From positions 1-64,000 of the forward strand of contig JBAXAI010000004.1 of assembly GCA_037142615.1 (NCBI GenBank): DNA of 64,000 nt. The letters run 5' to 3'. A program made the position numbers and the translations under genes. This document shows positions 3,095-60,953 of this stretch, one piece after another (the stretch's first letter is position 1; the number at the start of each line of letters is the position of its first letter). The DNA comes from Spirochaetales bacterium (GTDB lineage: Bacteria; Spirochaetota; Spirochaetia; JABEVK01). The notes under the pieces were generated by a model, which was given only the letters and a program-made list of their open reading frames with translations, was not told the origin of the DNA and did not search any database.

Positions 3095-5298
3095 AGAAGG
3101 TTCAGAGCCGCTACGAGCTCTTCCCTCAGGTAGGGCTTTTTGATCGCCGCCCGGAAGCCGTGGGCGCTCGGGTTGGCCAGTACCGGGGCCTCCGAATAAC
3201 CGCTGGCGACCATCACGGGGAACTTGTCGTCGAGGGTTCGCACGCCCGCCAGGACTTCCTGTCCCCCGAGACCTCCGCGGATGGTCAGGTCGAGGATGGC
3301 TCCCACCAGAGACTGGGGGCCTTTGCGGTCGGCTTCGAAGGCGTTCAAAGCCTCCTGTCCCGTTGCAACGCGCACCACCCCGTAGCCGAGCGAAACCAAC
3401 ATTTCTTCGAGAATCTGACCTATGGCGGCATCATCCTCGAGCACCAGCAGGCTTCCGTGTCCACGGTGGCCTTCCGATGCGTGGGCGGGCTTGGCGGCAA
3501 CCACCTCTTCGGCGGCCGGCAGCGAGACGTGAAAGGTCGTTCCTTGTCCGAGCTCGGACTCGACCCGGATGCTTCCCCCGTGTTTGGTGACAATGGAGTA
3601 GCAGGTGGTCAGGCCCAGGCCGTGGCCAAGTTCCTTGGTCGTGTAGAAGGGCTCAAAGAGCCGGTCGCGGGTCTCGGCCGTCATGCCGCTTCCGCTGTCG
3701 GTCACGCTGAGGTCGATCCAGCGGCGCTGTTCAGCATCGACGCGGTTGGCGGCCGTGATTCGGATCTTCCCGCCCTGTGGCATGGCCTGAACGGCGTTGA
3801 TGACCAAGTTGTCGATGACCTGGCCTATCTGGTTGTGGTCGTACCGGCAGGGCCAAAGATCGGCCGCAGCGTGGATCTCGAGCCGCACGGTGGAGCCGCT
3901 GAGCGCGAACCGCGCCGTTTCTTCCACAAACGGAAACAGGGGGCCGCTTCGAAGTTCGGGATGCCCTCCTTTCGAAAAGGTCATCAGTTGCTGGGTCAGG
4001 TTACGGGCACGGCCCAGGGTCTCCAGGGTCTTGACCAGATACGGCGAGGCCGGTCCGTTCTTGTCTTTTACCAACGCCAGTTCCATGTTGCCGAAAATCG
4101 CCGCCAGCAAATTATTGAAGTCGTGGGCGATGCCGCCGGCCAACAGCCCCAGGGCCTCCATCCGTTGGTTTTGACTGATCAGCGCCTCGAGCTGGATCCG
4201 TTCGGCGTCACGACGTTCCCGCTCCTGCAACAGGAGGTTCAGGGCCTCGATCAGGTTGCCGATCTCGTTGGTGCGCGGCACCGGCAGGGGCTCGAACTTC
4301 CGGCCAGGCTCTGCCATTTGGGCCAGCTTGTCGATGGTTGTGACCACGGGCAACAGCTGACGCCGAAGCAAGATCCAGTTTGCCGCGCCGGTGAGCAGCG
4401 TCAGCACAAAGACAAAGACGAGCATGCGGTCTTGCAGCACCCGAATGGGCGCAAACACTTCGTGCGTCGGGGTGTTGAGGGCAACGTACCAGTTGGCAAT
4501 CGGAATGTGTTCTACCGAAGCCAGAACCTCGACGCCCTTGGGCGTGACAAGAACCCGAGACCCGTTGGCGCCTTCCAGGAAGGCATCGATGCCCGGATTC
4601 ACACCCTTCGGCGGCAATTGCTCCATGGTGCGGGAACGGTCCGACGAGGTGATGATCAGGCGCTGCGAACGCGTGATCAACAGGTAGCCGGTGGCTCCCC
4701 CCAACGAGCTTTGGTCCAGATAATTGAGGAAGTTCGGCTTGCTGAGATCGATCACGCCGACCAGGCAGCCTTTCACGTTGCCCGTTTCGTCGTCCACCGG
4801 GACGGCGATCGAAAACACCGGAGTCTTGAGGGCAGCCCCCACGACGATATCGCTCAGGGCGACCGAGTTTTCGGTCAGGGCCTTTAGAACGTGCGGCCTT
4901 TCGAGATAGCGGATGCCGACGCGGCCGGCCGCTGCGGGAATCGACGCCAAGGCAACGCCCTCGAGGCCGGTGATGTAACCGCCACCGTTGAAAAGCACCA
5001 TGAGGCTCGGCCGGGTGTCGAGGAACTGCTGCAAGGCCAACTTGTCTTTCAGTAACTCGGGCGTAACCATCCGCGCGATCGCCTTCAGCGATTCGATGCG
5101 GTCGTTCAATTGGTGGCCCACCAAGTCGGCGATCACCGCAGCGGCCACGTGCTGACTGTTCCCGAAGTTCGCTTCGAGTTCGGAACGTTGCGACCAGCCC
5201 ACCGACAGCGCCAAAGCCCACAGGCTGACCAGCCAAACCAACGTCGTGACAAGGGTCAAGCGCGTCTTGAGGGATTGCCAAGGGCGTTTCAAGGGCAT
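3088..5298 (-). CDS. hybrid sensor histidine kinase (TM-Cache-TM-HAMP-HisKA-HATPase-REC)
   Basis: H-box GIAHDFNNLL; N, G1, F, G2 boxes; C-terminal receiver (LEDD...ILDL); GGAGG SD. Confidence 0.92.
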   Translation of the reverse strand: MPLKRPWQSLKTRLTLVTTLVWLVSLWALALSVGWSQRSELEANFGNSQHVAAAVIADLVGHQLNDRIESLKAIARMVTPELLKDKLALQQFLDTRPSLMVLFNGGGYITGLEGVALASIPAAAGRVGIRYLERPHVLKALTENSVALSDIVVGAALKTPVFSIAVPVDDETGNVKGCLVGVIDLSKPNFLNYLDQSSLGGATGYLLITRSQRLIITSSDRSRTMEQLPPKGVNPGIDAFLEGANGSRVLVTPKGVEVLASVEHIPIANWYVALNTPTHEVFAPIRVLQDRMLVFVFVLTLLTGAANWILLRRQLLPVVTTIDKLAQMAEPGRKFEPLPVPRTNEIGNLIEALNLLLQERERRDAERIQLEALISQNQRMEALGLLAGGIAHDFNNLLAAIFGNMELALVKDKNGPASPYLVKTLETLGRARNLTQQLMTFSKGGHPELRSGPLFPFVEETARFALSGSTVRLEIHAAADLWPCRYDHNQIGQVIDNLVINAVQAMPQGGKIRITAANRVDAEQRRWIDLSVTDSGSGMTAETRDRLFEPFYTTKELGHGLGLTTCYSIVTKHGGSIRVESELGQGTTFHVSLPAAEEVVAAKPAHASEGHRGHGSLLVLEDDAAIGQILEEMLVSLGYGVVRVATGQEALNAFEADRKGPQSLVGAILDLTIRGGLGGQEVLAGVRTLDDKFPVMVASGYSEAPVLANPSAHGFRAAIKKPYLREELVAALNLLW

Positions 5299-53335: not shown

Positions 53336-53926
53336 CTAGACCACGCTCAGCAGGTACACGAACGTGAACACGCCGACCCAGACAATGTCCAGGAAGTGCC
53401 AGAACAGGCTCAACCGGGACAGGCGTCCCATTACCCCAGGGGTCAGACCCTTGGTCAGCACCTGCGTCATCAGGACGATCATCCAGATTAGGCCGCAACT
53501 GACGTGAAAGCCGTGCGTTCCTACCAGTGTAAAGAAGCCAGACAAGAAGCCGCTGCGGTCCGGTCCGGCACCTTCCGCGATCAGGTGCACGAACTCCGAA
53601 ACTTCCATGGAGATGAACGCGACGCCTAGCGCGAACGTCACCAGCAACCAGCCGAACACGAGGTTCTTTTTGCCTTGGTGCATGGCGACGACGGCCAGTC
53701 CGTAGGTGAAGCTACTGATGAGCAGGAACATTGTCTCGACAAACACGTAAGGAAGGTCGAAGAGTTCTTTGGCGCCTGGCCCGCCAGCTACGTTGTTGCG
53801 GATCACCGCGTAGGTGGCGAACAGGAGGGCAAAGATGATCAAGTCGCTCATCAGGTAAATCCAGAACCCGAAGAGTCTGTTGCCGGAGGTGTGTTCCTCT
53901 CCGTGCGAAGTCACTGCACTACTCAT
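53336..53926 (-). CDS. cyoC: cytochrome bo3 quinol oxidase subunit III
   Basis: FGFWIYLMSD, LVGTHG.HV, FWHFLDIVW. Confidence 0.95.
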   Translation of the reverse strand: MSSAVTSHGEEHTSGNRLFGFWIYLMSDLIIFALLFATYAVIRNNVAGGPGAKELFDLPYVFVETMFLLISSFTYGLAVVAMHQGKKNLVFGWLLVTFALGVAFISMEVSEFVHLIAEGAGPDRSGFLSGFFTLVGTHGFHVSCGLIWMIVLMTQVLTKGLTPGVMGRLSRLSLFWHFLDIVWVGVFTFVYLLSVV

Positions 53927-55946
53927 GAGCCTTCCCCTCTGCCTTCACGGTTGTTGGTTTCCAGTCTGGTCCGAACGCCGCCGAAAGCTTGGCGTAGCGT
54001 GCGTCCTCGATTCGCTTCACCTCTTCGGCCGGAATCACGTATTCATTCTCGTCTCGGTTGGCGGCGGCGATCAGCGTCACGATGAAGCCCGCAAAGCCCA
54101 AGATAGCCATCCACCAGATGTACCAGATCATGCCGAAGCCGAAGAAGAACGACGCGATGCCGAGCCACGGGCCATAGGGCGCGTTCTTGGGCATGTGGAT
54201 GTCTTCGTAGGTTTCGGGCCTCTGGTAGGCTGTGCCGGCCTCTTTCTTGGCGGCGAAGTCGTCGAGCTGGGAAACCTCAGGAATGACGGCGAAGTTGTAC
54301 ACGGGGGCCGGAGAATCGATGGACCACTCCAAGGTGCGCCCGTTCCAAGCGTCTCCGGTCTGGTCGGCATTCTTCTTGCGGTCCCTGACGGTCGTGATCA
54401 CCTGCACGGCCATGGCGACGATGCCCAAGGTGATAATGGCCGTACCGATGGCCGCCACAATCAGCAAAGGCTGCCAGGCGGGGTTATCGTAGTGTTCCAG
54501 CCGGCGCGGCATGCCCATCAGGCCCAAAATGTAGAGGGGGAAGAAGGCGAGCGGGAAGCCGATGGCCCAGCCCCAGAACATCAGCTTGCCCCACTTTTCG
54601 TCGAGCTTGAAGCCCATGATCTTGGGGAACCAGTAGATGAGTCCGGCGAAGTACCCGAACAGCGCCCCTGGGATGAGCACGTTGTGGAAGTGCGCTACCA
54701 GGAAGACAGAGTTGTGGACCACGTAGTCGATGGGGGGAACAGCCAGCATGATGCCGGTGGCCCCACCGATGGCAAACAGGACCATGAAGCCCATCGTCCA
54801 GTACATGGGGGTCGAGAAGTGGATGCGCCCCCGGTACATGGTGAACAGCCAGTCGAGGATCTTCACACCCGTGGGGATTCCGATGAGCATGGTGGCGATG
54901 CCGAACGCGATATTCACATCCACCGTGTTGCCCATGGTGAAGAAGTGGTGCAGCCAGACTGTGAACGAAAGGAAGGTGATGACCACCGTGGCCCACACCA
55001 GCGTCGGGTAGCCGAACAGGGTTTTTCGCGAAAAAGTAGCCACCACCTCGGAGAACACGCCAAACGCGGGCAGGATGACGATGTAGACCTCGGGGTGCCC
55101 CCACATCCAGAAGATGTTGTTGTAGAGCATCGAGATGCCACCCATGTCATTGGTGAAGAAGTGCATCCCCAGGTAACGGTCGAGCGACAGAAGGAACAGG
55201 GCCACGGTCAGGGCCGGGAACGACAGGATGATGATGGCCGTGGTGGGCAGCACCGTCCAGGTGAACATTGGCATGCGCATGAACTTGAGGCCCGGGGCCC
55301 GCATGCGAATAATGGTCACGAAGAAGTTGACACCCGTGAGTGTCGTTCCTACCCCTGATATCTGCAGTGCCCATAGCCAGTAGTCGACGCCGGTGCCGGG
55401 ACTGTACTGCTTTTCAAAGAAGGGCGCGATGCCCGTCCAACCTGCCGTCGAGAACTGTCCGATCGAGAGTGACAGCATCACCAGGATCGAGGCAGCGAAC
55501 GTGAGCCAGAAGCTGATTGAGTTCAGCACCGGGAATGCCACGTCGCGGGCACCAATCTGCAGCGGCACCGCGATATTCATCAACCCGAACAGGATGGGCA
55601 TGGCGGCGAAGATGATCATGATGGTGCCGTGCGCCGAGAAAATCTGGGCAAAGTGGTCGGGGTCGAGGTACCCTAGATTGGCCCCTTCGGCGACCGACTG
55701 CTGCGCGCGCATCATGACGGCATCGACACCGCCGCGCACGAACATCAGCAGACCAAGAATCACGTACATGACACCAATCTTCTTGTGGTCGACGGTGGTC
55801 AACCACTCGCGCCAGATGTACTTCCACTTCTTGAAATAGGCAACGATGGCGATCAGGGCGATAACGGCGACCGGCATACCGATCGTGGCGGTCGCAAGGA
55901 AGGGATCGCTCAACGCGAAAGAATCCCAGGTTAGTCTTCCAAACAT
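53919..55946 (-). CDS. cyoB: cytochrome bo3 quinol oxidase subunit I
   Basis: DHKKIG, WGHPEVY, WLHH, AHFH; quinol-site R/D/H/Q pattern. Confidence 0.97.
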   Translation of the reverse strand: MFGRLTWDSFALSDPFLATATIGMPVAVIALIAIVAYFKKWKYIWREWLTTVDHKKIGVMYVILGLLMFVRGGVDAVMMRAQQSVAEGANLGYLDPDHFAQIFSAHGTIMIIFAAMPILFGLMNIAVPLQIGARDVAFPVLNSISFWLTFAASILVMLSLSIGQFSTAGWTGIAPFFEKQYSPGTGVDYWLWALQISGVGTTLTGVNFFVTIIRMRAPGLKFMRMPMFTWTVLPTTAIIILSFPALTVALFLLSLDRYLGMHFFTNDMGGISMLYNNIFWMWGHPEVYIVILPAFGVFSEVVATFSRKTLFGYPTLVWATVVITFLSFTVWLHHFFTMGNTVDVNIAFGIATMLIGIPTGVKILDWLFTMYRGRIHFSTPMYWTMGFMVLFAIGGATGIMLAVPPIDYVVHNSVFLVAHFHNVLIPGALFGYFAGLIYWFPKIMGFKLDEKWGKLMFWGWAIGFPLAFFPLYILGLMGMPRRLEHYDNPAWQPLLIVAAIGTAIITLGIVAMAVQVITTVRDRKKNADQTGDAWNGRTLEWSIDSPAPVYNFAVIPEVSQLDDFAAKKEAGTAYQRPETYEDIHMPKNAPYGPWLGIASFFFGFGMIWYIWWMAILGFAGFIVTLIAAANRDENEYVIPAEEVKRIEDARYAKLSAAFGPDWKPTTVKAEGKAHE

Positions 55947-55995
55947 CTCAGTGACACTCCTCTATGGTGTACATATGCGGCATTTCGACGGGTGG

Positions 55996-56880
55996 CTACA
56001 TTTTCCCGTCGGTCTTCGTCGCGTCGGCCATCGGTTTCAAGAACTCACCCACAATATGGCCAAACAGGTTGGGCTCCACAGAACCGTACGTGGTGGCCGC
56101 CAAACCAGCCTGGGGCTTGTTCAGCTTGTTGAACTCGTCGGTGCTGAGCGGATTGCCCTTGCTCTTGGCGTCTTGCAACCACGTGGCATAGTCGCCCTTG
56201 GTGACCGCGTCGGCCGCGAAGCTCATCGCGGAGTAGCCGATACCGGTAAACTCCATGTTGTGACCGACATAGTGACCCGGCTTGTCGGAAAGCAGGTTCA
56301 GGTGTGTGACCATGCCAGCCATGACGTACATCTGAGTCCCCAATTCGGGAATGAACATGGACGACATGACGGTGGCCGAAGTCAGGTCAAAGGTCACCGG
56401 CGCTCCGGCGGGAATGACCAGCTTGTTGAGCGAGGCCACTTGCTCGTCGGGGTAAATGAACAGCCAGTTCCAGTCGAGCGACACAACCTGCACATGCACC
56501 GGTTTTTCGGTCGACACGATGGGCTTGTACGGGTCCAAGTCGGTGGTCTTCACCCACGTGAGGTACGAAAGCACCCCAATGATCAGGATGGGAATCAGCC
56601 AGATCAGAACTTCCAGCTTGAGGTTTCCCTCCCAGTGCGGCTTGTAAGTGGCCTTGGTGTTCGTCTCGCGGTAGCGGATCGCAAACCAGATGACCATGAT
56701 GAACACGGGCACGATTATGATCAGCGCCAGGCCAACGGCCATCAGGATAAGGTCACGCTCTTGGGCTGCGATCGGCCCTTGGGGGTCGAGCAACGCGACC
56801 CCTTGGCAAGAACTCGCCATAGCGACAAAAAGCAAGATTCCCAAGCGGGTCAGGAATCGTCCAATCTTCGTCTGTCTCAT
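55996..56880 (-). CDS. cyoA: cytochrome bo3 quinol oxidase subunit II
   Basis: Lipoprotein Cys, LDPQGPIA, WLFIYP; no CuA Cys pair. Confidence 0.93.
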   Translation of the reverse strand: MRQTKIGRFLTRLGILLFVAMASSCQGVALLDPQGPIAAQERDLILMAVGLALIIIVPVFIMVIWFAIRYRETNTKATYKPHWEGNLKLEVLIWLIPILIIGVLSYLTWVKTTDLDPYKPIVSTEKPVHVQVVSLDWNWLFIYPDEQVASLNKLVIPAGAPVTFDLTSATVMSSMFIPELGTQMYVMAGMVTHLNLLSDKPGHYVGHNMEFTGIGYSAMSFAADAVTKGDYATWLQDAKSKGNPLSTDEFNKLNKPQAGLAATTYGSVEPNLFGHIVGEFLKPMADATKTDGKM

Positions 56881-56937
56881 CAGGCTCCCCTGGAGCGTGG
56901 ACGTGACCCGAGGATCCACCACACTCTCATAGCAATT

Positions 56938-56966
56938 AATATTGGGGAGATGACTGATCTTGTCAA
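56938..56966 (-). promoter_or_regulatory. sigma70-like promoter of cyo operon
   Basis: Minus strand TTGACA, 17 nt, AATATT. Confidence 0.55.
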
Positions 56967-56999
56967 CAAAGAGTTTACACGCCTGCCTAAACTCTTTGG

Positions 57000-57464
57000 T
57001 TACAAAGCGGCTTCGACCCGGTTCCAGTCGAGAGCGCTGGTGATGCGCAGCACTTCGCCGCCGTTGCCGTCGAGCAGAATCAAGGTGGGGGTGGCCATCA
57101 CGTCGTGCGCCACGGCCGCGTCGAACCCCTCGCTGTTGCTGACGTTGAAGGTGACGCCTTCGAAGGGCAGCAGGGGGAGTTTGTTCTTCAGGGCCGGGCA
57201 CTGGGGGCAGTTGTCCTTGACGAACGCGATCCAGCTGGTGGGCTTGGTGGTTTTTTCGTGGGGCTGGCTGGCGAGGTCTTCGCGGAACGTGACGCGGTGG
57301 TTGTACTCCTCGCGTTTGCCGGCGTTCCAGTTGGCCAGCGACCGGTAGTAGCCCACGATGCGGGTGTAGATTTCGGTGGGATGGTGGCCGGGCTGGGCCG
57401 CCTTGGCTTCGAGTTCAGCGATGCGGGTCGTGATTTCGGTCGTGGTCATTTGGTTGGTGGTCAT
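57000..57464 (-). CDS. NrdD glycyl-radical C-terminal domain fused to glutaredoxin/thioredoxin-like domain
   Basis: AGGAG SD, ATGA overlap with nrdD; EIYTRIVGYYR..NWN.GKREE; CPQC...TPT. Confidence 0.88.
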   Translation of the reverse strand: MTTNQMTTTEITTRIAELEAKAAQPGHHPTEIYTRIVGYYRSLANWNAGKREEYNHRVTFREDLASQPHEKTTKPTSWIAFVKDNCPQCPALKNKLPLLPFEGVTFNVSNSEGFDAAVAHDVMATPTLILLDGNGGEVLRITSALDWNRVEAAL

Positions 57465-59542
57465 AGTTGGCTCCTGAGGGTGACGAGTTCGGTTTCGATG
57501 GCGTGTTTTTCTTCGGCTTCGCACTGGGGGCAGCTGAAATGCTCGCCAGCGAGGTAACCGTGGACGGGGCAAATGCTGAACGTGGGGCTGATGGTGAAGT
57601 ACGGGATGCGGTAGTTGCTGCACATGGCTTTCACCAGGCTGCGACACGCCTTCCAATCGCTGATGCGTTCGCCGAGGAACCCGTGGAACACGGTGCCGCC
57701 GGTGTACTTGGTCTGCAGGCTTTCCTGGTGGTCGAGCGCGTCGAAGATGTCGGCCGTGAAGTCGACCGGCAACTGACTGCTGTTGGTGTAGAACGGCTGC
57801 GCCAGCCCGCTGGTGATGATGTCGGGGTGGTGCTTGCGGTCGTGCAGGGCCAGGCGGTAGCTGGTGCTTTCGGCGGGGGTGGCCTCGAGGTTGAACAGGT
57901 CGCCGTAACGCTCCTGGTAGTCCTGCAGGCGCTCGCGCATGTGCACCAGAATCTCTTCGGCAAACTGCTTGCCCTCGGGGGTCTCGATGCCGTGCTCGCG
58001 GCCTAAGAAGTTCTGGCAGGTTTCGTGGATGCCGCTGAGCCCGATGGTGCTGAAGTGGTTGTCGTAGTGCTTCAAGTAGCGCTTGGTGTAGGGGAACAAG
58101 CCCGCGTCGGTGAGGCGGCTGATCACCTTGCGCTTGATGGTGAGGCTCTGCGCAGCGAGGTCCATCAGGTGGTCGAGGCGGTTGTAAAAGTCCAGTTTGT
58201 CGGGCTTTCCACCACGCGAGGCGAGGTAGCCGATGCGCGGCAAGTTGATGGTGACGACGCCGATGCTGCCGGTGAACTCGTCGCTGCCGAACAAACCGCC
58301 GCCTCGCTTGCGCAGTTCGCGTTTGTCGAGCTGCAGGCGGCAGCACATGGAGCGCACGTCGCTGGGGTCGAGGTCGCTGTTGAGGAAGTTCTGGAAGTAC
58401 GGGGTGCCGTACTTGGCGGTCATGTCGAACAGCAGCTGCGCGTTGGGGCTGTCCCACGCGAAGTCGCGGGTGATGTTGTAGGTGGGAATGGGGTAGGCGA
58501 ACCCTCGGCCCTGAGCGTCGCCGGTGATCATCACTTCGAGGAAGGCCTTGTTCACCAGATCCATCTCGGCCTGGCAGTCGCCGTAGGTGTAGTCCAGGTC
58601 CTTGCCACCGACGACGGCCTGGCGGTCCTTGAGGTCGCTGGGAACGGTCCAGTCGAGCGTGATGTTGGTAAACGGGGCCTGGCTGCCCCAACGGCTGGGA
58701 GTGTTGACGCCGTAAATGAAACTCTGCACGGCCTGCAGCACGTCGTCGTAGCTCAGGTGGTCTTCGCGCACGAACGGGGCCAGGTAGGTGTCGAAGCTGC
58801 TGAGCGCCTGCGCGCCGGCCCACTCGTTCTGCATCACGCCCAGAAAGTTGACCATCTGGTTGACCAGCGTGCTCAGGTGCTTGGCAGGGCTGGAGCAGAT
58901 TTTGTCGTTCACGCCGCCCAGGCCTTCGACGATGAGCTGTCGGAGGCTCCAACCGGCGCAGTACCCGCTGAACATGCTCAGGTCGTGCAGGTGAAAGTCG
59001 GCGTTCTGGTGGGCTTCGGCAATGGCCTCGGGGTACACGTTGCGCAGCCAGTAGTTGGCCGTCAGCGTGCCCGAGTTGTGCAGGATGAGGCCGCCCAGGC
59101 TGTAGTTCACGTTGGCGTTTTCTTTGACCCGCCAGTCGGCGCCCGAAAGGTAGCCTTCCATGGTCTCGCCGATGTCGAGCATGAGCTTTTTGCTGTCGCG
59201 CAGGGCCGCGTGGCGCTCGCGGTAGAGGATGAACGCCTTGGCCAGGTCGGCGTGGTTGCCCTCGATGAGCGCGACCTCGATGCGGTCCTGGATGGCTTCG
59301 ATATCGGGGGTGCCGCTCAGACCGTGGAGCACCTGGTTGGTCAGGTGGGTGACGAGGTCTTCATCGACCGCGCCGCGCACGGCGGTGAACGTTTTGCGGA
59401 GCGTCGCCTTAACGCGCTCAGGGTCGAATGGACGAGTCTCTCCGTCACGGGTGACGACGAGCGGAACGGGTCCGGCCGGCGCGATTTCCTGGCGTGTGAA
59501 CCCCAGAAAGTCCTGCCAGACTTCACGAGAACTATTGGACAT
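57461..59542 (-). CDS. nrdD: anaerobic (class III) ribonucleoside-triphosphate reductase, large part lacking the Gly-radical tail
   Basis: ATP-cone (VVTRDG..FD); SGYCAGW; SMCCRL; EATPAE; CPVHGY...CPQC; no RIVGY. Confidence 0.93.
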   Translation of the reverse strand: MSNSSREVWQDFLGFTRQEIAPAGPVPLVVTRDGETRPFDPERVKATLRKTFTAVRGAVDEDLVTHLTNQVLHGLSGTPDIEAIQDRIEVALIEGNHADLAKAFILYRERHAALRDSKKLMLDIGETMEGYLSGADWRVKENANVNYSLGGLILHNSGTLTANYWLRNVYPEAIAEAHQNADFHLHDLSMFSGYCAGWSLRQLIVEGLGGVNDKICSSPAKHLSTLVNQMVNFLGVMQNEWAGAQALSSFDTYLAPFVREDHLSYDDVLQAVQSFIYGVNTPSRWGSQAPFTNITLDWTVPSDLKDRQAVVGGKDLDYTYGDCQAEMDLVNKAFLEVMITGDAQGRGFAYPIPTYNITRDFAWDSPNAQLLFDMTAKYGTPYFQNFLNSDLDPSDVRSMCCRLQLDKRELRKRGGGLFGSDEFTGSIGVVTINLPRIGYLASRGGKPDKLDFYNRLDHLMDLAAQSLTIKRKVISRLTDAGLFPYTKRYLKHYDNHFSTIGLSGIHETCQNFLGREHGIETPEGKQFAEEILVHMRERLQDYQERYGDLFNLEATPAESTSYRLALHDRKHHPDIITSGLAQPFYTNSSQLPVDFTADIFDALDHQESLQTKYTGGTVFHGFLGERISDWKACRSLVKAMCSNYRIPYFTISPTFSICPVHGYLAGEHFSCPQCEAEEKHAIETELVTLRSQL

Positions 59543-59607
59543 GGTACCGAGCCTCCCAGCTTTCAGCGCTTCCCCAAGCGCATGGCGCTCAGCGAACGCC
59601 GAGCTAA

Positions 59608-59623
59608 CCCCTAGCTGTAGCGT
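59608..59623. promoter_or_regulatory. candidate NrdR box
   Basis: cccCTAgctgTAGcgt fits the CwA-N4-TwG core upstream of nrdD. Confidence 0.4.
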
Positions 59624-59729
59624 GTCAGCGGGGTTGTTTAGCAGGGTAAAACACTATGGAGAAGTTGACAAGGGTAAAACTCGGTAAACTTCTGCTGACT
59701 TGGCGTCAGTTCCGTGCGACACTGGTCGA

Positions 59730-60953
59730 GTGAAGAGCCGACTCACCCTAGCCTTGAACGAACTGATCAGCCTGATCCGCGATATCGGTACCGTCTACGA
59801 CCTGTCCGACGTGCTCAAGCGTGCCGCCGACGTGGTTGCCCGGGTGCTCCCCGCCAATCGCGTCACCATCATCATCGTGAACCGAGAGGAACGCGCCGTT
59901 GAGTACTTCTGCGAGGGTGGACACGGGGCGGGTGACACGGTGGAGTTTAGCTACGACGAGTTCGAGAACAGCCCTGCGGGTTGGGTACTTGAGCACCAGA
60001 CCAGCACCCGTTCCGACACTGGATCCAGTTTGGTTGTGCCGCTGCTGGTGGGCGGTACCGTGCGCGGGACCATGTCGGTCAACAACCGTGCCGACCAATC
60101 GGCGTTCACTGCCGACGACGGTACAGTGCTGGAGATCGTGGGTAACTTCTGTAGCGCCGCGTTTGAAAAGACGGCCGAAGTGTTGCGGGGGCAGCAGGTG
60201 AGCGCGGCCCTCGAAACGGCTAACTTGCTGCTGCGTCACGAAACCGACCTGAAAACCAAGCTGTTCAGCATCCTGGCCCACGACCTGCGCGGCCCTATGG
60301 GCAATGTTCGCGAGGCCCTCCGACTTCTCGTCGATGGTCCCGAGTTTGAAGCTTCGGATCGGCTGGAATTGCTGGCGTTGACGGCTGACTCTGCTGACAA
60401 GGCGTACGGTCTCACGGAAAACGTTCTCGGCTGGATCCAGAATCAGCTCGACCACGATCCGGAACGGTTCGTCGACACGTCGCTGGCCGAGGCCGTGGAT
60501 CAGGTGATCACATGGCTGGCGCCTTTGGCCGTAAAGAAGTCGATTCGCCTGGCCGCCGAGACGTCACCGGAACACCGTTTTTTCGCCGATGCGGGAAGCG
60601 TGGCTGCTATCGTGCGCAATCTGGCCTCGAATGCCATCAAGTTCTCACCTGCGGGGACCACCGTGACCCTTCGTACGTTGCGGGACGACGTCATGACCTG
60701 CGTCGAAGTGCAGGACCAAGGTGTCGGCATTCCTCAGGAAAAGGCCCAGGGGCTTTTCAGTCGGGCAAAGAACGACTCCACAAAGGGAACCAGTGGCGAG
60801 GCCGGCAGCGGCTTGGGCTTGATGTTCTGCTGCGACTTGGCGCAGAGCTTCGGGGGAATTCTGGAAGTAGAGAGCGAGGTGGGCCGGGGGTCCCTCTTCC
60901 GACTGGTCGTTCCCAACGGTTCGGGAACCGACAACGGCGGGATGGAGTTTTAA
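59730..60953 (+). CDS. GAF-domain sensor histidine kinase
   Basis: GAF (LVVPL...GTMSV); ILAHDLRGP; NAIKFS, DQGVGI, GSGLGL. Confidence 0.9.
   Translation: MKSRLTLALNELISLIRDIGTVYDLSDVLKRAADVVARVLPANRVTIIIVNREERAVEYFCEGGHGAGDTVEFSYDEFENSPAGWVLEHQTSTRSDTGSSLVVPLLVGGTVRGTMSVNNRADQSAFTADDGTVLEIVGNFCSAAFEKTAEVLRGQQVSAALETANLLLRHETDLKTKLFSILAHDLRGPMGNVREALRLLVDGPEFEASDRLELLALTADSADKAYGLTENVLGWIQNQLDHDPERFVDTSLAEAVDQVITWLAPLAVKKSIRLAAETSPEHRFFADAGSVAAIVRNLASNAIKFSPAGTTVTLRTLRDDVMTCVEVQDQGVGIPQEKAQGLFSRAKNDSTKGTSGEAGSGLGLMFCCDLAQSFGGILEVESEVGRGSLFRLVVPNGSGTDNGGMEF

Follow-up and report, generated by a model that had tools for sequence, protein, structure and literature searches.

A class III ribonucleotide reductase divided between two genes in Spirochaetota, with the glycyl-radical loop on a small protein that carries a thioredoxin-fold domain

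In the standard account, class III ribonucleotide reductase (RNR) consists of one chain, NrdD, served by an activase, NrdG. This one-chain NrdD with NrdG (NF006126/PRK08270 type) is the solved reference, with structures from T. maritima (4COI/4U3E), phage T4 (1H78), and P. copri (8P23). In the thioredoxin-dependent class III RNR of N. bacilliformis a double-cysteine finger loop forms the active-site disulfide; an MCCR-type motif allows either formate or thioredoxin to serve as reductant, methionine being used in formate chemistry (PMC9669993). O2 cleaves glycyl-radical enzymes (GREs) at the glycine, and the small protein GrcA rescues pyruvate formate-lyase (PFL), according to the sections of PMC13450708 and PMC8683613 available to us. 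In the accessible part of the former, a review of June 2026, spare-part proteins are said to have been identified for no GRE class other than the formate lyases. Here we describe an RNR locus in a 64,000-nucleotide (nt) stretch of a Spirochaetales bacterium genome (assembly GCA_037142615.1, contig JBAXAI010000004.1, positions 1 to 64,000; hereafter the window). At this locus a truncated nrdD gene is followed by a small gene that encodes the glycyl-radical loop together with a thioredoxin-fold domain. We consider it probable that the two genes encode a two-subunit class III RNR, in which the thioredoxin-bearing radical subunit docks through a coiled coil, is activated by NrdG, and brings a tethered reductant.

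Both genes lie on the minus strand. The nrdD gene (57461..59542) encodes a body of 693 amino acids (aa) with an ATP-cone and a catalytic barrel, identified from its open reading frame (ORF), Pfam NRDD, and NCBIfam NF006126. NRDD (PF13597) matches the large protein over profile positions 1–532 of 562 (580.5 bits, cut-off 26.2) and the small protein over positions 531–562 at residues 28–60 (31.1 bits, cut-off 26.2). NF006126 is divided in the same way, with positions 5–651 of 684 in the large protein (1049 bits, cut-off 548) and 648–682 in the small one. An NrdD on one polypeptide would hold both the barrel and the C-terminal radical domain, and here the body ends at NRDD position 532 of 562. 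No further NRDD matches were found genome-wide, so the count is one body (profile 1–532) and one radical ORF. Past the Zn site, nrdD encodes a C-terminal helix and then stops at TGA (57461–57463). The large protein ends ...CPQCEAEEKHAIETELVTLRSQL before the stop, and its last 19 residues, past the final Zn-site cysteine, end with EAEEKHAIETELVTLRSQL. The small gene (57000..57464; 154 aa; stop codon at 57000–57002) starts with an ATG at 57462–57464 that overlaps this TGA as ATGA, the two frames sharing 4 nt. Its AGGAG ribosome-binding site (57471–57475) is within the 3' end of nrdD, 7–11 nt 5' of the ATG. The small protein starts MTTNQMTTTEITTRIAELEAKA and contains YTRIVGYY and CPQC. A model that saw the letters of the window and a list of its ORFs (the sequence-only reading) had described a truncated nrdD with the RIVGY motif in the next gene, preceded by AGGAG and an ATGA overlap and followed by CPQC, and all of these elements are present.

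The small protein consists of an N-terminal helix (residues 8–23, 57396..57443), the glycyl-radical loop (residues 28–60, TEIYTRIVGYYRSLANWNAGKREEY, 57285..57383), a linker (residues 61–76, 57237..57284), and a thioredoxin-fold domain (residues 77–154, 57003..57236). We aligned 31 small subunits (alignment A1). The R-x-x-G-Y motif R35-I-V-G38-Y39 is located on the small protein and is invariant in 31/31; the codon of the radical glycine G38 is at 57351–57353, within the loop. Other invariant positions of the radical loop are T30, E31, Y33, the whole of R35–S42, N45–N47, G49–R51, and E53. I15 and L18 in the N-terminal segment are nearly invariant. The linker varies in sequence and is very variable in length (gappy alignment columns of about 67–135; predicted local distance difference test, pLDDT, 54–65). 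In the C-terminal domain C86, C89, P90, G113, and P126 are invariant; the C86-P-Q-C89 codons are at 57198–57209 and P126 is the cis-proline. AlphaFold2 (AF2) predicts helix 8–23 and a beta-alpha-beta-alpha-beta-beta-alpha domain at 77–153 (pLDDT 96–98). Its low confidence for the radical loop alone is expected, because the barrel is absent from that model. Foldseek ranked thioredoxins first for the C-terminal domain (76 matches at E ≤ 1e–3). Pfam thioredoxin families stayed below their gathering scores: Thioredoxin_2 scored 24.9 versus 27 at residues 79–154, Thioredoxin_3 20.1 versus 24.8, and Glutaredoxin 14 versus 22.9. Given the predicted fold and the Foldseek ranking, we class this domain as a thioredoxin fold whose CxxC and cis-Pro loop are both intact; the CPQC redoxin domain of the sequence-only reading is thus a real one, joined to a radical loop.

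The split extends widely across Spirochaetota. In the protein database, relatives of the small subunit form 109 clusters (84–270 aa) from Spirochaetales and Spirochaetota metagenome-assembled genomes (MAGs), named 'thiol reductase thioredoxin', 'glutaredoxin', 'ribonucleoside-triphosphate reductase', or 'hypothetical' at source, or not named at all. A profile search of 1.84 billion representatives gave 153 proteins at E ≤ 1e–30, and the best 150 are all 125–320 aa long. Scanning one genome per species returned at least 600 stretches, 596 of them confirmed; the locus counts given here are for the best 80, classified from plus-strand ORFs only. Almost all of these belong to Spirochaetota (Treponema, Treponemataceae, Oceanispirochaeta, Marispirochaeta, Spirochaetaceae), and two have other labels. 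A body ORF ends directly 5' of the small ORF in 66 loci, and another 5 are split with a long overlapping frame, so that 71/80 are split; in 8 the small gene is all that is visible (6 at contig edges), and one locus is fused. We also used an even set of 121 Spirochaetota genomes (≥90% complete), of which 68 have NrdD. The enzyme is split in 51 of them, recognized by a radical match in a different open frame or locus (38 genomes) or by reading the junction sequence (13); 10 have a contiguous one-chain enzyme, 5 have one chain with a long low-complexity linker (confirmed by sequence), and 2 are ambiguous. Homologues thus share the layout of the window in most loci and genomes surveyed. The suggestion that split nrdD may already be recorded in other spirochaetes holds for databases, which contain truncated NrdDs of 696 and 699 aa from the cultured Spirochaeta cellobiosiphila and Marispirochaeta aestuarii, but we found no open-access or bioRxiv paper describing the split.

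The window is part of a MAG, and the stretch occurs in freshwater metagenome runs. The junction could be checked in assembled contigs, rather than raw reads, of two studies other than the likely source. Logan contig X3 record 6 spans it from 57230 to 57750 and X5 record 8 from 57195 to 57510, each with 0 differences and 0 gaps. In relatives whose loci were inspected, a truncated nrdD is followed by a short ORF of its own that carries the radical motif in 11/11 cases. The split is native, far beyond chance or error.

The two new termini created by the split carry helices. In all 71 parsed split loci (71/71) the body has a charged tail of 19–39 aa (median 27) and the small protein an N-terminal extension of 25–41 aa (median 26). 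One-chain relatives with a C-terminal thioredoxin (P0113–P0116, L089, L108, L112, and L113; 732–877 aa) run as CPxCG-x-ETEIYTRIVGYY, straight from the Zn site into the radical loop, and have neither helix. In the window the NrdD tail (residues 675–693, 57464..57520) is an amphipathic helix by AF2 (672–692 in the model of the body), heptad pattern, and complex model. The heptad signal is 0.47 for the NrdD tail (versus 0.28 in shuffles) and 0.81 for the small N-terminus (versus 0.33), and 0/200 shuffles reach it in either case, although kinship among the sequences inflates this test. The core of the tail helix is formed by I682, L686, L689, and L693, flanked by E685 (g) and R690 (e), and that of the small-subunit helix by I11, I15, L18, and A22, flanked by R14 (g) and E19 (e). 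One antiparallel register fits the core layers (I682/A22, L686/L18, L689/I15, L693/I11). In this register tail position 16 (R690) faces small-subunit position –12 (E19) as an e-e' pair, which has opposite charges in 61/71 loci and the same charge in 0/71; the orientation is reversed (K/R with E) in 11 loci of several lineages. The g-g' pair of tail position 11 (E685) and small-subunit position –17 (R14) has opposite charges in 58/71 and the same charge in 5/71. On a 37-row tree each member of pair 16/–12 changes 4 times, and each member of pair 11/–17 changes 6 times. Complementary charges at e-e' and g-g' are a signature of antiparallel coiled-coil pairing.

A model of the complex was built from body residues 126–693 (37-row alignment) and the small subunit (31-row alignment). 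It scored 0.84 versus 0.01 for the best of 3 controls; contacts agree to at least 82% between the three runs, with a partner pLDDT of 79 or more. Small-subunit residues 28–34 pair with body strand 654–658 and residues 667–671, and residues 52–60 with 582–622. The expected error of the radical loop on strand 654–658 is 0.5–0.9 Å, and its placement is the radical-domain arrangement of one-chain NrdDs. The helix contacts involve body residues 674–675, 678–679, 682–683, 685–686, 689–690, and 692–693 and small-subunit residues 6, 8, 11–12, 14–15, 18–19, and 21–22. These contacts have no solved counterpart and are made by exactly the residues singled out in the heptad and covariation analysis. The sequence-only reading had supposed that the two new termini dock through a coiled coil; the restriction of the helices to split forms, the heptads, the charge swaps, and the predicted complex with its terminal helices in contact all favour this idea.

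Gene arrangement in relatives bears on how the parts work together. Three complete genomes of one genus from the window's class have the body (profile 1–532) and the radical ORF (533–562) 97, 509, and 603 kb apart. The radical gene of this genus (L106, G241, 3210–4246; likewise in G055 and G103) encodes 97 aa with helix and radical loop, has no thioredoxin domain, and ends in a Cys-rich CNCDCPP segment. In L106 it overlaps the start of nrdG (TIGR02495, 151.7 bits) in an operon. Judged from these sequences, the two genes function in trans. In 74 of the best 80 loci the small gene has nrdG directly 3' of it, in the same orientation. L098 and the nearest kin of the window (L022–L026) depart from this, and the window itself has quinol oxidase genes at this place. 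The NrdG activase of this genome is elsewhere, on contig C31 (TIGR02495, 150.4 bits, cut-off 131.15). Because of the linkage in relatives, we infer that NrdG acts on the small protein.

The body retains the features of a class III catalytic subunit. The ATP-cone (PF03477, 54.7 bits) occupies residues 28–112 (59207..59461). The finger loop M399-C400-C401-R402 (58337..58348), of the double-cysteine type with a methionine, is invariant in 37/37 split NrdDs, and so is the beta-A cysteine C195 (GYCAGW). Residues C658, H661, C671, and C674 (C-x2-H-x9-C-x2-C, 57521..57571) are invariant in alignment A2 and align to the Zn ribbon of T. maritima NrdD, forming a putative Zn site. E553 (NLEATPAE) is invariant as well and aligns with a Glu of the T. 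maritima enzyme, possibly the catalytic Glu named as proton source of the active site. A thioredoxin reductase, TrxB (381 bits), is also encoded in the genome. Thioredoxin dependence does not follow from the double-cysteine loop noted in the sequence-only reading. The two cysteines are there, but MCCR with its methionine also fits formate, and the genome has three PFL-like enzymes. Compared with the thioredoxin-only class III type, the locus shares the double cysteine and departs in the invariant M399.

What these data show is the split, how well it is conserved, which domains its parts contain, and that the two helices go along with it. On this basis we suggest the following mechanism for the two-subunit enzyme. 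The large subunit (693 aa) brings the ATP-cone, the barrel, the MCCR loop, beta-A C195, the predicted C/H/C/C Zn site, and an amphipathic helix of 19–21 residues; the small subunit (154 aa) brings the matching helix and then the radical loop with G38. The loop would enter the barrel and pair with strand 654–658 as the C-terminal domain of one-chain enzymes does. The terminal helices would form a short antiparallel coiled coil, probably held by R690–E19 and E685–R14 salt bridges, and stand in for the lost peptide bond. Several independent lines favour this docking. From the gene linkage of relatives, NrdG would load the radical onto small-subunit G38. By analogy, the thioredoxin domain would most likely act as a linker-tethered reductant of the active-site cysteines C195 and C400/C401, re-reduced by the thioredoxin reductase of the genome. 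The invariant CxxC and cis-Pro, the presence of TrxB, the double-cysteine finger loop, and the fused glutaredoxin that reduces a class I RNR speak for such a role.

Several observations weigh against parts of this scheme. The score of the complex model was reached by 116/157 solved complexes and 2/215 mismatched pairs, counts that hold only roughly here, as we made the alignments ourselves. Since the position of the radical loop is like that in the solved one-chain NrdDs (T4, T. maritima), this part of the model may reflect memory. The phylogeny-aware charge-swap test gave 3 independent pairs for 16/–12, with 3/3 in the same direction (p 0.25), and only 2 independent pairs on well-supported branches for 11/–17; with so few independent pairs this sign test cannot reach significance. 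In the complex model the thioredoxin domain touches the body nowhere with confidence; this placement fits a flexible tether and lends no support to a reductant role. The same finger loop (RSMCCRL, 58/58 NrdDs of all layouts compared) is found in relatives without any thioredoxin. Finally, the enzyme may use formate, because MCCR keeps the methionine and three PFL-like enzymes could supply formate.

GrcA logic may also be applied to this RNR. An exchangeable radical cartridge, in which the O2-cleaved small subunit is swapped for a fresh NrdG-loaded one and the 693-aa body is spared, would extend the two-subunit explanation rather than exclude it, and we put it forward as a tentative possibility. 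In its favour are the operon of small gene and nrdG far from the body in one genus, and genomes of other Spirochaetota classes with one body and several radical ORFs at separate loci: 3 in G192, 4 in G229, 2 each in G146, G101, and G136, and 2–4 in G170, G120, G068, G177, and G050. These extra ORFs are candidate true spare copies. The genome of the window, moreover, encodes the large subunit of a class I or II RNR (Ribonuc_red_lgC) and has a quinol oxidase operon adjoining nrdD, and for these two reasons the organism probably meets oxygen. On the other hand, the single small gene is translationally coupled to the body via ATGA, leaving no spare and no separate regulation, and subunits clamped by a coiled coil would be expected to bind tightly and not to exchange with ease. 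The 'spare part' of the sequence-only reading, taken in the GrcA sense, does not apply. Like GrcA, the small gene encodes a stand-alone radical-loop protein and has its own Shine–Dalgarno (SD) sequence, but no full-length enzyme coexists with it; the genome has a single gene for each of the two parts, which makes the small protein an obligate subunit. The wider form of the cartridge idea is a modular class III RNR throughout the phylum, with a detachable, separately regulated cartridge loaded by NrdG off the enzyme, clamped by the coiled coil, equipped with its own thioredoxin as reductant, and replaced after O2 damage. We regard this as possible, though less likely than not. If it were true, the most oxygen-sensitive RNR would be repairable in microaerophiles, in what would be the first spare-part system outside formate lyases.

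A fair, though in our view less likely, alternative is that the thioredoxin domain serves activation or protection while turnover runs on formate. Under such a scheme the domain could, for example, keep cysteines of the Zn site or of the radical domain reduced for radical formation by NrdG. The methionine that MCCR retains from formate chemistry (PMC9669993), the three PFL-like enzymes, and a finger loop and NLEA[TS]P[AG]E motif that are the same with or without thioredoxin all agree with it. So do relatives such as L106, in which the thioredoxin domain has been lost and helix and radical loop remain, and the activating role that thioredoxin has for the class III enzyme of E. coli, as reported in the available part of PMC4390871. 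Against it, CxxC and cis-Pro are strictly invariant over about 150 clusters at 50% identity, which suggests a constantly used redox function, and the known fused redoxin of an RNR is its reductant: in the accessible portion of PMC6187632, a glutaredoxin fused to a class I RNR component is proven in this role. As a predictor of the thioredoxin domain the finger-loop motif was rejected, being shared by all 58 NrdDs.

A single chain could in principle still be made from the split genes by programmed frameshifting or stop-codon readthrough at ATGA. The 4-nt frame overlap in the window would allow this, and some relatives have both ORFs in one frame, parted by a single stop. However, the relative frame at the junctions of relatives is 0, 1, or 2; the stop is TGA, TAA, or TAG, with consecutive stops in some cases; the spacer between body and small ORF ranges from –20 to 242 nt; and SD-like GGAGG/AGGAG sequences precede most candidate small-gene starts (12 loci whose sequence was inspected). 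Because frames, stops, and spacers vary in this way and the genes are unlinked, 97–603 kb apart, in three genomes of one genus, we rejected a single-chain product as very improbable. A frameshift introduced by assembly or sequencing, or a pseudogene in decay, is a negligible explanation: the MAG origin of the window and the far-upstream open frame of the small gene, which in GC-rich DNA would keep an indel from standing out, are outweighed by the identical bridging contigs, the same layout in 71/80 loci and 51/68 genomes (complete ones among them) with differing frames and stops, and the strong purifying selection on both parts.

The history of the two-subunit layout was examined in a careful tree of 58 NrdD bodies, which is unrooted and does not show directions of change. 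It contains two deep clades. In the first, one-chain forms, both plain and with thioredoxin, stand together with the split helix-plus-thioredoxin forms; the second, from other classes of the phylum, holds one-chain forms with long low-complexity linkers and splits with micro-peptides of 50–60 aa. In the first clade the split state changes 5 times on the best tree, a minimum of 3 changes being required by well-supported branches, and 0/200 bootstrap trees have a single change. An approximately unbiased (AU) test against a single clade of the helix-plus-thioredoxin split gave p 0.037 (LG+G4 quick tree). A single origin of this split is thus not supported. Since the fused forms P0113–P0115 and L089 nest among split ones and at least 3 changes are forced, the split and fused states have switched more than once; the nested fused forms possibly arose by re-fusion through in-frame deletion of both helices.

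The second split layout is found in other Spirochaetota classes. Here an nrdD of 689–758 aa ends ...CPYPHTEADLKRYGKYLECL before the stop, and an SD sequence and a 'micro' ORF of 50–60 aa follow that carries the glycyl-radical loop only, with neither helix nor thioredoxin. Examples of such ORFs are L103 (G056, 4233–4424), L104 (G212, 4126–4305), L105 (G128, 4184–4381), and L107 (G252, 3916–4122). The one-chain NrdDs of L110, L111, L114, and L116–L119 (768–849 aa) have a long low-complexity insert rich in Lys, Asn, and Glu between the Zn site and the radical loop, at the split point of their relatives. L121 (G092:C3:252400-252900) belongs to another NrdD subtype with the loop RIRRITGYLVG, one in-frame stop before the loop, and a possible start after that stop. 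At G051:C1:392614-394464 the body is in two pieces (profile 1–115 and 113–530, with one TGA) and is accompanied by a 64-aa radical ORF; this body could be a pseudogene or have been split once more. P0148 (950 aa) unites a PF00085 thioredoxin with ATP-cone and NRDD on a single chain, a different joining of thioredoxin to NrdD. The two oddly labelled loci, L026 ('Borreliella garinii', a cave MAG) and L042 ('Candidatus Marinamargulisbacteria'), both have the spirochaete-type split; either mislabelled bins or gene transfer would account for the labels. In the tree, L042 diverges close to where the thioredoxin clade begins.

Around the RNR genes of the window, quinol/cytochrome oxidase subunits I and II (COX1, COX2/COX_ARM; 53919–56880) follow directly 3' on the minus strand, and a GAF-histidine kinase gene (59700–60953, plus strand) is divergent, 5' of nrdD. 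A promoter and terminator scan of 56700–59800 found, in the interval separating the oxidase genes from the small gene, one promoter-like site (56966–56938, minus strand) versus 0.7 expected, which is chance level. The three PFL-like GRE genes are on contigs C6 (60649–62553 and 71291–73258) and C16 (38538–39776), and activase-like radical-S-adenosylmethionine matches adjoin them.

The split class III layout is a variant of a known enzyme that we found in no paper. We found no split NrdD described in the open-access and bioRxiv literature as far as its texts were available; RNRdb entries and Table S1 of PMC6187632 are outside this scope and may list such genes. Within the same scope, the RefSeq survey of PMC6187632, Table S1 apart, reports one grx::nrdD fusion (Lachnospiraceae bacterium) and no split NrdD. 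In the accessible portions of PMC9669993 and PMC4390871 (RNR phylogeny), PMC2795772 (RNRdb), and the review PMC13450708, a split NrdD is not described either. For annotation, surveys that require full profile coverage would miss the small genes, to judge from the methods of PMC6187632. A whole phylum, Spirochaetota, parts the radical domain from the enzyme, and one large branch added a thioredoxin and a coiled-coil clamp. This opens questions on how the activase handles a free radical domain, how such a domain leaves and re-enters the barrel, whether O2 damage is repaired by subunit exchange, and by which route thioredoxin reaches a class III active site. Cultured spirochaetes (Marispirochaeta, Spirochaeta cellobiosiphila, Treponema relatives) carry the split, and the system is therefore well suited to experiment.

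Compared with described systems, the locus combines features that are known separately. Like NrdJa and NrdJb, the class II RNR of Pseudomonas aeruginosa, it has a C-terminal redox-active domain in the gene next to the barrel gene (PMC5704485, PMC9669993); in contrast, as far as the available parts of these papers go, that enzyme is B12-dependent, NrdJb is a Cys-rich zinc domain for terminal reduction and not a radical site, and the parts are non-homologous. Like Grx::NrdB of Facklamia ignava (accessible portion of PMC6187632), it has a redoxin fused to the radical-bearing RNR component, which there serves as reductant; that system, however, is class I, with a tyrosyl/metal radical subunit and an N-terminal glutaredoxin. 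The small protein resembles E. coli GrcA/YfiD and phage T4 Y06I in being a small stand-alone radical-loop protein that acts in trans on a large barrel. Its loop is, however, of NrdD and not PFL type, and it is obligatory to a body that has no radical domain, whereas intact PFL has its own. With the N. bacilliformis class III RNR, known here through PMC9669993 and the available part of PMC4493059, it shares the double-cysteine loop and a conserved Glu (E553) at a place aligning with a Glu of T. maritima NrdD; it differs in having MCCR instead of SCCR, so that formate is possible, and in a redoxin fused to the radical subunit instead of a free housekeeping thioredoxin. With the one-chain NrdD it has in common the ATP-cone, the barrel, the double-cysteine loop, the beta-A cysteine, the predicted Zn site, the RxxGY loop, and an NrdG in the genome. 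Unlike that enzyme, it has about 20 residues added to the C-terminus of the body and about 25 to the N-terminus of the small subunit, a radical loop on a second polypeptide, and a thioredoxin-fold domain after the loop.

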